Under the pieces are notes generated by a model. That model searched no databases and was not told the origin of the DNA. It saw only the letters and a list, made by a program, of their open reading frames with translations. DNA of 40,000 nt from contig NZ_JBHIKW010000013.1 in NCBI RefSeq assembly GCF_042138895.1, forward strand, positions 54,007 through 94,006, given 5' to 3'. Numbering within the stretch: the first letter of the stretch is position 1; the number at the start of each line of letters is the position of its first letter. Position numbers and translations under genes: made by a program. Positions 9,971 through 12,798 of the stretch are shown here, one piece after another. The stretch comes from Cedecea selenatireducens. Its GTDB lineage: Bacteria > Pseudomonadota > Gammaproteobacteria > Enterobacterales > Enterobacteriaceae.

Positions 9971-12001
9971 ATGAAACGGTTCTCCCTCTGTCTTTTACTC
10001 ACGCCTTACCTCGCTTACGCAGGCTGGACCGCACCGGGACTTCCTGCTTTTCAGGAAACGGGTCCGGGCCAGTTCATCAGCACCGCTCATCTGGCCAAAG
10101 GCTCGCTGCCGCTTAATCTGAAGCTAGATAACCAATGCTGGCAGCCTGCAGAAACCATCAAGCTTAATCAGGCTCTTTCACTCAGGCCGTGCTCAGGCGA
10201 TGCGCCTGCGTGGCGACTTTTCCGAGCCGGAGAATACCAGGCACAGATAGATACCCGCAGCGGTACCCCCACGCTGATGCTCAGCATTAAGCCCGAGGCC
10301 AGCAGCCAGCCTCAACAGACGGTGGCGCAGTGCCCTAAATGGGATGGAAAGCCACTCACCGTCGACGTTAGCAGTACTTTCCCGGAAGGTTCACTGGTGC
10401 GTGATTTCTACAGCGGAGGCACGGCAAAAGTTGAGCAAGGCCATATCACGCTGATGCCTGCCGCCGGAAGCGACGGTTTATTGCTGCTGGAATCCGCAGC
10501 CGTAGAAAAACCAGCGCCGTTTAGCTGGCACAATGCGACGGTCTACTTCGTTCTGACCGATCGTTTTGAAAACGGCAACCCTGCAAACGATAGCAGCTAT
10601 GGCCGCCACAAAGACGGAATGCAGGAGATAGGCACCTTCCACGGAGGCGACCTCGCGGGGCTCACCAACAGGCTGGATTACCTGCAGCAGCTTGGTGTTA
10701 ACACGCTCTGGATAAGCTCCCCGCTGGAGCAAATTCACGGCTGGGTGGGCGGCGGCACCAAAGGCGACTTCCCACACTACGCCTACCACGGTTACTACAC
10801 CCTGGACTGGACGAAGCTTGACGCCAACATGGGTAACGAAGCCGAGCTCCGCAAACTGGTGGATGAAGCCCACAGGCGCGGGATCCGCATTCTGTTTGAC
10901 GTTGTCATGAACCACACAGGCTATGCGACGCTCGCCGACATGCAGGAGTACCAGTTTGGCGCGCTGTATCTCAAAGGGGATGAACTCAGGAAAACGCTCG
11001 ACGAGCGCTGGACTGACTGGCAGCCAGCGGCGGGCCAAAGCTGGCACAGCTTTAACGACTACATCAACTTTAGCGACAAAGCCGCGTGGGATAAGTGGTG
11101 GGGCAAGGCCTGGATCAGAACGGACATTGGCGATTACGACAACCCTGGCTTCGACGACTTAACTATGTCGCTCGCCTTCTTGCCCGATTTGAAAACCGAA
11201 GCGACCGCTCCGGCAGAACTCCCGATATTTTACCGGCACAAGCCCGATACCGCCGCGAAGGTGATACCTGGCTACACCGTTCGCGACTACCTGAGCCACT
11301 GGCTTAGCCAATGGGTACGTGACTATGGCATTGATGGTTTCAGGGTAGATACCGCAAAACACGTTGAAAAAGCGGCCTGGCAGCAATTAAAAACGCAGTC
11401 CAGCGCGGCATTAGCCGAATGGAAGCAGGCCAACCCGGACAAAAAAATCGATGATGCACCGTTCTGGATGACGGGCGAAGCCTGGGGCCACGGCGTGATG
11501 AAAAGCGATTACTACGCGAACGGCTTCGACGCGATGATCAACTTCGACTACCAGGAGCAGGCGGCCAAAGCGGTGGAATGCCTGGCCACGATTGCCCCTA
11601 CATGGCAACAAATGTCGGACAAACTCCAGCAATTTAACGTGCTGAGCTACCTGTCCTCCCACGACACCCGCCTGTTCCGGGAAGGCGGACAAAAAGCGGC
11701 GGAGCTGCTGTTGCTCACGCCAGGCGCGGTACAGATTTTCTACGGCGATGAAACGCAAAGACCATTTGGCCCAACGGGGTCTGACCCGCTGCAGGGCACC
11801 CGCTCGGACATGAACTGGCCGGACGCCACAAGCAAGCAGGCCGCAACGCTTGCTCACTGGCAGAAGCTGGGCCAGTTCCGCGCCCGCCATCAGGCCATCG
11901 GCGCAGGAAAACAAACGACGTTAAGCGTCAAACAGGGCTATGCCTTTAGCCGGGTCAGCGGCAATGACAAGGTGATGGTGGTGTGGGCGGGGAATCGATA
12001 G
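9971..12001 (+). CDS. malS: periplasmic alpha-amylase
   Basis: The ORF track starts at 9932. ATG 9971 gives MKRFSLCLLLTPYLAYA (signal peptide) and a 676-aa product, the same length as E. coli MalS. Collinear throughout (…FHGGDLRGLT…GFRVDTAKHVE…). Confidence 0.93.
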   Translation: MKRFSLCLLLTPYLAYAGWTAPGLPAFQETGPGQFISTAHLAKGSLPLNLKLDNQCWQPAETIKLNQALSLRPCSGDAPAWRLFRAGEYQAQIDTRSGTPTLMLSIKPEASSQPQQTVAQCPKWDGKPLTVDVSSTFPEGSLVRDFYSGGTAKVEQGHITLMPAAGSDGLLLLESAAVEKPAPFSWHNATVYFVLTDRFENGNPANDSSYGRHKDGMQEIGTFHGGDLAGLTNRLDYLQQLGVNTLWISSPLEQIHGWVGGGTKGDFPHYAYHGYYTLDWTKLDANMGNEAELRKLVDEAHRRGIRILFDVVMNHTGYATLADMQEYQFGALYLKGDELRKTLDERWTDWQPAAGQSWHSFNDYINFSDKAAWDKWWGKAWIRTDIGDYDNPGFDDLTMSLAFLPDLKTEATAPAELPIFYRHKPDTAAKVIPGYTVRDYLSHWLSQWVRDYGIDGFRVDTAKHVEKAAWQQLKTQSSAALAEWKQANPDKKIDDAPFWMTGEAWGHGVMKSDYYANGFDAMINFDYQEQAAKAVECLATIAPTWQQMSDKLQQFNVLSYLSSHDTRLFREGGQKAAELLLLTPGAVQIFYGDETQRPFGPTGSDPLQGTRSDMNWPDATSKQAATLAHWQKLGQFRARHQAIGAGKQTTLSVKQGYAFSRVSGNDKVMVVWAGNR

Positions 12002-12017
12002 TCGTCATATCGACTAT
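11998..12017 (+). terminator. weak hairpin overlapping the malS stop (possible terminator)
   Basis: ATAGTCG-tcatat-CGACTAT, a 7-bp AT-rich stem followed only by TT. A poor intrinsic terminator, so malS transcription may read into the downstream element. Confidence 0.25.
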
Positions 12018-12031
12018 TTAAGTTCGGCTAA

Positions 12032-12606
12032 GGTTCCGTTCACTTCCAGTTCGGTTTCATATGTCACCACCGAACCGGTGAACGACTCGGGGAAGTCACC
12101 GTCACTTCCCCGAGACCCCGGACTCCCGGCCAAATAAATCGACCGCTAAAGCGGCAGACCTCCGTTTTATCTCCCAGTCCTGGGTCGGCTGAGATGCGTT
12201 CCCGACGCTCTCAGCCTCCGGCCGTTCCCGACGTCCGGACCCTGGCCAGTCGGAGAGAAAACGGAGGCGATTTAAGCCGGAACCGTGCCTCGCTTTTTGT
12301 TCCCAGCCACGCTGAACATCCCTGTCGCTTCAAGACTTACAGCCACTCCCTTGTTCCCGGCTCTTATCGCCCCCGGTTATGACCCAACTCAGGCGGGGTT
12401 GAGCTGCCGGGAGCAGCGAAAGAGAGCGATCGTCGGGAACGAATCGGGAACGACCCCGAATGTTTGGGTGATAGCCGGTGGGTTTACCGCTTTAGCGGCG
12501 ATGAGCTCGCCGGGCGCCGGGGCTGTTCGGGGGATGGCGTTATCCCCCGGACACGTTCACCGTGCGCTGAAAGTGCAGGGGAAGCAGATCTCAAGGTGAA
12601 CGGAAC
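12032..12606. repeat. non-coding inverted-duplication element: two diverged, convergent copies of a ~190-nt hairpin-rich module flanking a ~185-bp unique core (candidate structured ncRNA or MITE/foldback element)
   Basis: GTTCCGTTCAC (12033-12043) is the exact reverse complement of 12596-12606. The arms align block by block: CGGTGAACG, an 11-bp hairpin, CCCCGG, CCCGGC, CCGC-TAAA-GCGG and tandem CGTTCCCGA. There is no credible ORF. See findings. Confidence 0.6.
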
Positions 12607-12798
12607 TTCATCCGTTTTCCCATAGAAAATATCATATGAGCCAGCATCAATGATGCCGCCGCCATTCAACATATCCTGCTACACAGCACGAATCCCACAG
12701 CATATTCGCCAACAGTGGCCAGGCTTACCGGGTTTGCACGGCGTTATTTGTAGCGCTATGGTTAGCCTCTTTTCAAAAGCATTCAGCAGACCCACGTT

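Follow-up and report, generated by a model that had tools for sequence, protein, structure and literature searches.

A strongly amplified repeat domain in Cedecea belongs to the TRIP1/replication risk sequence family

We analyzed 40,000 nucleotides of the Cedecea selenatireducens genome (assembly GCF_042138895.1, contig NZ_JBHIKW010000013.1, positions 54,007 to 94,006; hereafter the window, with its first letter as position 1). Its malS–avtA spacer (12002-12798) lacks a credible gene and contains a palindromic element in which a long helix enclosing two hairpins (12159-12267) had been predicted. As one alternative, that prediction drew a comparison with large ornate RNAs. The structure is not an ornate RNA of a single locus but lies within one of ~56 copies of a dispersed repeat that is homologous to the E. 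coli TRIP1 repeats, also known as replication risk sequences (RRS). The domain is a diverged and strongly amplified member of the TRIP1/RRS family, which is of the TwoAYGGAY type, and not a new kind of element. The helix and its twin hairpins are real and are kept by covariation as a three-way-junction-like domain. As an overall explanation, we somewhat favor an amplified TRIP1/RRS homolog that works through an RNA platform with GGA-containing loops. Three candidate functions are considered, namely this RNA platform with its two GGA loops as a bivalent site, an obstruction of replication by hairpins in the DNA, and a selfish repeat, and these readings are not mutually exclusive.

Copy number and relationship to known families

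A BLAST search with 631 nt around the structure retrieved 51 loci from the same genome, nine of them full-length and many internally deleted or reduced to half length. A covariance model of the domain (R1), built solely from sequences of Cedecea and two other genera, gave 56 domain matches at ~50 loci. These comprise 44 intact domains, arranged as 12 doublets and 20 solo copies, plus 12 partial domains. The relative orientation of the two domains is the same in all 12 doublets, divergent in the TwoAYGGAY sense, and the gap between them measures 63-64 nt in nine and 118-157 nt in the rest. Among 37 loci, 23 lie between convergent genes; orientation within tandem gene contexts is evenly split (6 to 6), and that of solo copies is unbiased with respect to local GC skew (12 against 8).

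The element occurs in all nine other Cedecea species searched, hence in 10 of 10 with its own. Outside the genus, a first BLAST sample of 31 genera lacked it in 30 and gave one weak match, while a wider BLAST search retrieved copies with 70-79% identity from two further genera. With R1, full-length matches appeared in 25 of 150 Enterobacteriaceae genera. Direct BLAST with the element found nothing in E. coli genomes and nothing in plasmids; the connection to E. coli emerged only through the covariance model and intermediate genera.

In E. coli K-12, R1 matched at 915025-915193 (aqpZ–lysO) and 2229210-2229378 (yohP–dusC) and nowhere else (E values of 1.4e-6 and 1.0e-5; 43.1 and 39.3 bits with filters off). 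The aqpZ–lysO and yohI/dusC sites are TRIP1a and TRIP1c (Li et al. 2024, PMC10888264), members of the repeats first described by Rudd in 1999 (as cited with Li et al. 2024). The same sites are RRS-lysO and RRS-dusC, and RRS have been equated with TRIP1 (Pham et al. 2024, PMC11194060). Given that no direct BLAST match leads from Cedecea to E. coli, the homology is distant. The gap is bridged by a homolog from an intermediate genus with 85.7% identity to sequences present in all 5426 E. coli genomes, and a unit-wide alignment with TRIP1a and TRIP1c reveals shared segments block by block.

The Cedecea and E. coli repeats agree in several further respects. Both are GC-rich units of similar size (146-273 bp with a GC content of 62-65% in E. 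coli; ~270 nt with a domain GC fraction of 0.62-0.63 in Cedecea), both are intergenic and lie just downstream of genes, and their G-rich stretches coincide in place and strand. Each is predicted to adopt a very stable branched "double Y" fold, which in Cedecea consists of a stalk with a side hairpin followed by two hairpins. They also differ. E. coli carries 2-5 copies per genome versus ~56 in Cedecea, the K-12 copies are single units whereas many Cedecea copies form head-to-head doublets with a gap of ~64 nt, and the loops read ATCCCTG or ATCCATG in E. coli but TTCCCGA in Cedecea. In E. coli, the repeats are described as keeping conserved positions near lysO and dusC on the flanks of the Ter domain, with the G-rich strand serving as lagging-strand template; the solo copies of Cedecea lack such a replication-related orientation bias. 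With R1 and filters off, no domain was found in the Cedecea lysO–aqpZ spacer or downstream of dusC.

A third E. coli site lies between asmA and yegH. In E. coli, this copy can be a full unit situated between two repetitive extragenic palindromic (REP) units, with a GTTCCGTTCAC end and an inner GGTGAACG motif. The Rfam family naRNA4 matches only the REPs that flank this unit. The K-12 version of the copy is truncated (173 nt).

The TwoAYGGAY RNA motif (Weinberg et al. 2010, PMC2864571; Rfam RF01731) provides the second link. On the opposite strand, the entire model aligned with E. coli TRIP1a (30.6 bits), and R1-matched domains from two other genera were matched there as well (44.5, 39.2, and 37.2 bits; the gathering score is 43). 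As in TwoAYGGAY, the Cedecea domain has a basal stem bearing two consecutive hairpins with GGA in their loops when read on the opposite strand. The Cedecea loops are CGGGAA (U-CGGGA-A on the - strand) rather than AYGGAY, sharing with it the GGA but not the A and Y on either side; loops of other genera read AUGGAU and AGGGAU. In Pseudomonas, TwoAYGGAY elements are multi-copy, with an extended basal stem, extra hairpins, frequent divergent doublets, association with REP-type repeats, and upstream arrays of 5-6-nt repeats (bioRxiv 10.64898/2026.09.22.753630). All 12 Cedecea doublets are likewise divergent, although the median gap in the Pseudomonas doublets is 249 bp as opposed to 64 nt. If RNA is the active form, the motif described for the family sits on the - strand here, opposite to the strand on which the structure was originally read. 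The Cedecea element thereby joins three subjects that have been described separately: Rudd's TRIP1 repeats, the replication risk sequences, and the TwoAYGGAY RNA motif.

A third comparison was with REPIN, BIME, and other repeats resembling miniature inverted-repeat transposable elements (MITEs), including REP doublets, ERIC, and Correia elements. The Cedecea element shares with them its non-coding, palindromic nature and its dispersal over intergenic sites, mainly at the 3' ends of convergent genes, as well as inverted doublets, compensatory stem changes, and deletion variants. Like MITEs, it also has terminal inverted repeats. However, its unit is a ~170-nt branched domain instead of a 20-40-nt hairpin, its interior is more conserved than its sub-terminal arms, and neither a RAYT/Y1 transposase in the genome nor a target duplication was found. 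Searches of the literature on Cedecea repeats, on the end motif as a string, and on the names of the flanking genes retrieved no description of the element. Identity with the old "RSA" repeat (RSA/Box C) was considered, found no confirmation in the literature, and was dropped.

Fold, anatomy, and variation of the element

The predicted 16-bp helix was recovered as described: 12159-12174 (CCTCCGTTTTATCTCC) pairs with 12252-12267 (GGAGAGAAAACGGAGG) at 15 of 16 positions (94% Watson-Crick), with a single A12169/G12257 mismatch. The two enclosed hairpins have identical cores, with the 11-mer CGTTCCCGACG at 12197-12207 and 12223-12233, 26 nt apart. All four recurrences of the loop motif are likewise present, GTTCCC at 12299 and 12353 and TCGGGAAC at 12433 and 12444. 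The second TCGGGAAC is private to the window copy, which has G12447 where the other 27 full-length copies aligned have C and read TCGCGAAC.

Folded as + strand RNA, 12159-12267 reaches -59.7 kcal/mol (z -6.38), and as - strand RNA -58.9 kcal/mol (z -4.49), with none of 200 shuffled sequences as good in either case. The minimum-energy fold contains the 16-bp helix, a further 7-bp helix (12179-12186 with 12238-12245), and both hairpins. When the whole 596-nt element is folded, z-scores are -10 to -11 on both strands; the + strand retains the helix and twin hairpins, while on the - strand long-range pairing with the right half is an alternative to the domain. In each TTCCCGA loop, the T at the start and the A at the end are probably paired, as this T-A is replaced by C-G in 4 of 28 full-length Cedecea copies and also in other genera; the real loop is therefore TCCCG.

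With 30 extra nucleotides on the 5' side, the RNAalifold consensus includes a stalk and a side hairpin. The structure under study is the distal "Y" of one ~170-nt structured domain. In the window, R1 matches this domain twice, at 12117-12286 on the + strand (150.8 bits) and at 12351-12522 on the - strand (134.8 bits). The element is therefore a head-to-head doublet of ~270-nt units, each running from a terminal hairpin through a second hairpin to the ~170-nt domain, with a total length of ~575-640 bp. The original prediction had the helix joining a left arm to a unique core. This does not hold: the supposed core is the right-hand domain, an inverted and diverged copy of the left, and the helix therefore sits inside one repeat unit. 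The features, taken from an alignment of 28 full-length copies from ten species (29 full-length copies for the flanks), are as follows, with strand where one applies.

12000-12032: outer left segment, degenerate in the window copy; many other copies read TTAGTCACAAATA...TATG
12033-12043, + strand: outer terminal inverted repeat GTTCCGTTCAC, partner of 12596-12606; CCGTTCAC invariant in the 28 copies
12044-12075: variable spacer within the left terminal hairpin; 78-86% majority-base identity (bins 12050 and 12070)
12076-12084, + strand: inner end motif CGGTGAACG, inverted relative to the outer one; GTGAACG invariant
12086-12114: hairpin CTCGGGGAAGTCAC/GTCACTTCCCCGAG, five pairs with compensatory changes
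12117-12286, + strand: L-domain, the whole conserved fold including the studied helix (R1 E value 5e-33)
12126-12141, + strand: 5' strands of the stalk (helices 1 and 2), with CCGGC at 12126-12130 pairing with GCCGG at 12276-12280 and TAAATCG at 12135-12141 with CGATTTA at 12268-12274
12143-12154, + strand: side hairpin CCGC-TAAA-GCGG (helix 3); 4 of 4 pairs covary
12159-12174, + strand: 5' strand of P1, the 16-bp helix (helix 4); 7 of the 10 outer pairs covary across genera
12179-12186, + strand: 5' strand CCTGGGTC of P2, the inner 7-bp helix (helix 5), pairing with 12238-12245
12187-12216, + strand: hairpin H1 (helix 6), loop T-TCCCG-A; 8 of 8 pairs covary across genera
12217-12239, + strand: hairpin H2 (helix 7), loop T-TCCCG-A; 9 of 9 pairs covary, and the loop-closing T-A changes to C-G
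12252-12267, + strand: 3' strand of P1; 12263 and 12264 hypervariable within Cedecea
12268-12280, + strand: 3' strands of the stalk, CGATTTA, A, and GCCGG; GCGAT and GCCGG invariant in a 26-sequence alignment of three genera
12287-12350: variable linker between the units; 76-84% majority-base identity
12351-12522, - strand: R-domain, inverted and diverged paralog of the L-domain with the same architecture
12524-12553: right-arm hairpin, counterpart of 12086-12114, with compensatory changes
12554-12606: right terminal hairpin, comprising inner motif CGTTCACCG, a variable spacer, and the outer repeat GTGAACGGAAC at 12596-12606
12607-12640: outer right segment, degenerate, delimited by the flank comparison of full-length copies

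Conservation is concentrated in the two cores, 12150-12290 and 12350-12510, where the 28 copies agree with the majority base at 96-98%. The L-domain is 97-100% identical among most Cedecea species and 93% identical in the most divergent. At the ends, each element carries four copies of GTGAACG, and the CCGTTCAC/GTGAACG core is invariant in the 28 copies; the GTTCCGTTCAC end recurs in the E. coli asmA–yegH copy and in another genus. The R-domain presents CGGGA loops on the + strand, at 12408-12412 and 12434-12438, and one of its hairpins alternates between CTGC[CGGGA]GCAG and the covarying CTGT[CGGGA]ACAG, the latter in 12 of 28 copies. The 62- and 104-aa open reading frames were not accepted as coding, as they span the hypervariable linker with its small indels.

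The G-rich stretch shared with E. coli lies next to the domain in both units. On the - strand, the 3' half of the 12086-12114 hairpin and the bases that follow are rich in G, and their position is homologous to that of the G-quadruplex stretch in the E. coli RRS; 12512-12536, which overlaps the 5' arm of the right-arm hairpin, is G-rich on the + strand. The E. coli G-quadruplex sequence GGGGGTGCAGGGGGCGGCGG is absent from Cedecea, where the homologous - strand stretch reads GGGGTCTCGGGGAAGTGACGG. A G4Hunter-like score gave -1.52 at the 12086-12114 hairpin and 1.68 at 12512, compared to 1.84 in E. coli. The Cedecea element holds no canonical four-tract G-quadruplex motif by a regular expression that also misses the published E. 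coli G-quadruplex.

Across genera, the fold is maintained while the sequence changes. Among 26 sequences of three genera, covering L- and R-type domains, 95.3% of cells are paired, and both sides have changed in 22 of 48 pairs. The covariation score is 0.228, versus 0.02-0.05 in slid controls, and none of 500 shuffles scored as high. In an alignment of 48 R1 matches from ~25 genera, 46 of 48 modeled pairs covary (score 0.428 versus 0.06); this alignment was fitted to the R1 model, which favors the structure. Each homolog also folds on its own to the same architecture. The stalk helices are 99-100% paired, with 11 of 12 pairs covarying across genera, and T12273 and A12275 are at least 90% conserved in the 26 sequences. 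In the outer 10 bp of the 16-bp helix, 7 pairs covary. The sequence and length of its distal 6 bp vary from genus to genus, yet a continuous helix is kept in every homolog, as exemplified by another genus in which CCTCATTTTTAGGG pairs with CCCTAAAAATGAGG. This broad, covariation-rich alignment offers a sounder structural model for the family than the single-sequence folds of the TRIP1 paper.

The loop heptamer is conserved only in part. Its TCC, which is GGA on the opposite strand, is nearly always kept, but the remainder varies (UCCCG, AUCCCU, AUCCAU, UCCUG, UCCAG). We infer that selection acts on base pairing to preserve the fold, while the TCC/GGA triplet of the loops stays the same. Cedecea copies of the domain are nearly invariant: 102 copies differ mostly by single changes, and the variable sites are the bulges at 12195 and 12234 and helix positions 12263 and 12264, of which the last three are hypervariable. 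T, C, and G all occur at 12234, which sits opposite C12222 at a C/T mismatch in H2. All four bases occur at 12263, and changes at 12263/12264 break G-C pairs of the 16-bp helix in many copies.

Comparison of orthologous copies in two species gave 98-99% identity for the cores (98.6%), 86-87% for the arms, 62% for the linker, and 85-90% for the flanks, while the C. davisae copies all share seven fixed substitutions. This pattern of core versus arm identity, together with the substitutions shared within C. davisae, argues for concerted evolution combined with constraint on the fold.

Several copies lack parts of the domain: some have lost the twin hairpins through deletion of 12189-12248, others the 5' strand of the helix. 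Exact removal of 12189-12248 was observed in three copies (C12:239855-240262, C12:424045-424413, and C23:396620-396825, with C12 and C23 denoting contigs), where the junction is a short TCGG repeat. In other copies, the outer end is joined straight to 12171 across the direct repeat CTTCCAGTCC/CTCCCAGTCC. Both types have the appearance of deletions caused by slippage across hairpins.

Two species carry the whole element, together with outer segments of ~45-75 nt, in opposite orientation at one orthologous convergent-gene spacer; the segment corresponding to 12000-12032 is inverted along with it. This arrangement suggests that the element re-inserted at this site or that the entire unit was inverted, rather than recombination between the arms. 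In the window, the malS stop codon TAG (11999-12001) adjoins the degenerate outer segment without a gap. In Cedecea species without the element, the malS stop is followed by GCGTTAA and a REP unit. In five other Cedecea species in which the element is missing from the malS–avtA spacer, one or two REP-like units (CCCTCACCCCGGCCCTCTCCCCAGAGGGGCGAGGG) are found there. Members of this REP family are numerous in Cedecea, yet the genome has no match to the Y1/RAYT transposase domain (PF01797).

Candidate functions

As a mechanism, we tentatively put forward an RNA platform, a possibility that we do not hold with confidence. The GGA-carrying strand would be transcribed (the - strand for the L-domain and the + strand for the R-domain), and a dimeric GGA-binding protein of the CsrA type would find a bivalent site in its two GGA loops, 26 nt apart. 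With a doublet, transcription coming from either side would meet one such site. The amplification itself would be the spread of a repeat that is mobile or recombines. Pairs of sites 10-63 nt apart are bridged by CsrA dimers, and TwoAYGGAY is listed in Rfam clan CL00106, which we take to be the Csr/Rsm clan. The original prediction had suggested a multivalent platform for a dimeric protein. Invariant loops on variable stems do fit a sequence-specific, possibly dimeric partner, but the motif described for the family lies on the - strand.

A number of results weigh against this mechanism. No sigma-70-like promoter was found in the element, which has only an incidental terminator-like site, and public runs labeled as RNA hold parts of the element as directionless contigs that are probably DNA and report presence only. 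An RNA acting from one strand would be expected to display asymmetry in wobble pairs, and the lack of a clear asymmetry counts against it: G-U and A-C wobbles number 10 to 16 among the three genera and 46 to 34 across genera, where 23 of the 46 occur at a single pair. Changes on one side that keep the pair (G-U type) are rare, at 5 cells, compared to 101 cells in which both sides have changed. Where a doublet lies between convergent genes, the domain that read-through reaches first is the antisense one. The loop of Cedecea, CGGGAA, does not conform to AYGGAY, and RF01731 gave no match on either strand of 11950-12700, even at E ≤ 10. With respect to simple mobility, PF01797 had no match in this 100%-complete genome, although control genomes respond, and a scan of the same genome identified no pair of ends 1-3 kb apart enclosing a gene. 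At four orthologous sites, neither a target-site duplication nor a clean empty site was readable, and orthologous sites without the element have REP-like units or shell forms instead.

A bolder extension, which we regard as improbable, is that TRIP1/RRS may be a mobile, structure-selected family with a conserved bivalent GGA-loop platform, whose doublets in Cedecea would give each occupied convergent gene pair CsrA-type sites on both transcripts. In current papers, TRIP1/RRS are a pair of positioned "topological relief valves" on either side of the E. coli terminus. In Cedecea, the family has expanded to ~56 copies and is absent from the supposedly conserved positions; if the extension were true, the repeats would constitute a genome-wide layer of post-transcriptional control or a protein sponge.

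Among alternatives to the RNA platform, an obstacle at the DNA level, as shown for the E. coli RRS, survives best, though we consider it somewhat unlikely. The very stable hairpins and the G-rich stretch would fold in the single-stranded lagging-strand template, the twin hairpins forming one part of the obstacle, and would hinder polymerases and leave gaps after replication, with effects on topology. A doublet would place a G-rich GGA-loop strand on each DNA strand and so work in either orientation. RRS have an experimentally shown effect on replication and are reported to be conditionally essential (Pham et al. 2024, PMC11194060); RRS-lysO and RRS-dusC block Pol I, II, and IV in vitro and cause lagging-strand gaps in vivo, and at least one of them is apparently essential (PMC11194060). 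The pairing constraint in our alignments is strand-symmetric, as expected for DNA, whole-element folding is highly significant on both strands (z-scores of -10 to -11), and G4Hunter-like scores of magnitude 1.5-1.7 fall on the GGA-loop strand of both units at the position of the E. coli G-quadruplex. However, an obstacle for which any stable hairpin would suffice leaves unexplained why the TCC/GGA triplet stays constant over ~25 genera with changing stems. Some 56 gap-forming sites would also be a heavy load for one genome. Further, the placement of solo copies relative to GC skew (12 against 8) is unlike the E. coli rule, no Cedecea copy occupies lysO–aqpZ or dusC, the positions said to be conserved, and the E. 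coli G-quadruplex sequence is not conserved.

Cedecea constitutes a natural test case: it has ~56 copies, none at the two reported conserved positions, and these lack a canonical G-quadruplex and differ in their loops. Cedecea should behave unlike E. coli if position and a G-quadruplex are what RRS function requires. If it depends on the fold and the GGA loops, Cedecea is the easiest organism in which to see it.

A purely selfish, non-autonomous mobile element of MITE or REPIN type, bringing the host no gain, appears unlikely. The hairpins and constant loops would then be the structure recognized by a transposase or recombinase whose substrate is folded DNA, either single-stranded or cruciform. 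Much of the genomic distribution agrees with this account, including the rise from 2-5 copies in E. coli to 56 domain matches at ~50 loci in Cedecea, variable presence and absence at orthologous sites, the whole element in opposite orientation at the same site in two species, and the preference for convergent-gene spacers. The same can be said of the invariant terminal inverted repeats with their four GTGAACG copies, the deletion derivatives between short direct repeats, the species-specific substitutions shared by copies within a species (e.g., the seven of C. davisae), and a 74-nt unit with the same loop that is inserted into the H1 loop in another genus. On the other hand, no cognate transposase was found (no gene between ends, no Y1 match, and no plasmid copy by BLAST), and no target-site duplication was definable. 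The interior is also more conserved than the sub-terminal arms, both among copies and in the orthologous comparison (98.6% versus 86-87%; 85-90% in the flanks). A typical MITE shows the opposite pattern, and the fold therefore seems to be subject to selection or gene conversion.

The reading that follows the original prediction, a + strand RNA three-way junction presenting two UUCCCGA loops to a dimeric protein or to the complementary CGGGA loops of the right half on the same strand, has the more significant fold (z -6.4 versus -4.5), which survives in the full-length + strand fold, but it is very improbable, given that every doublet carries the domain in both orientations and thus privileges neither strand, the opposite strand folds ~5 kcal/mol better when averaged over 26 homologs, the family's described RNA motif is on the other strand, and the element has no promoter and, at gathering and relaxed Rfam thresholds across the window, no relevant match and no large RNA family.

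The loop heptamer at other sites

The TTCCCGA loop also occurs outside the domain. Directly downstream of a tRNA-Phe gene (C41:256550-256800, contig C41), a 74-nt unit is present in three tandem copies, each ending in an AAAACG-TTCCCGA-CGTTTT hairpin with the same loop as the twin hairpins. The unit inserted into the H1 loop of a homolog from another genus is related to this one and has the same loop. In E. coli, the same 74-nt unit lies between iscX and pepB, where the loop differs (CAATG). Downstream of an rRNA operon (C23:510840-510900, the counterpart of E. coli rrnB T1-T2), we observed the hairpin AAAATCG-TCGGGAA-CGATTTT, whose heptaloop equals the - strand heptaloop of the twin hairpins in an unrelated context; its E. 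coli counterpart presumably reads AAATCCG-CCGGGAG-CGGATTT.

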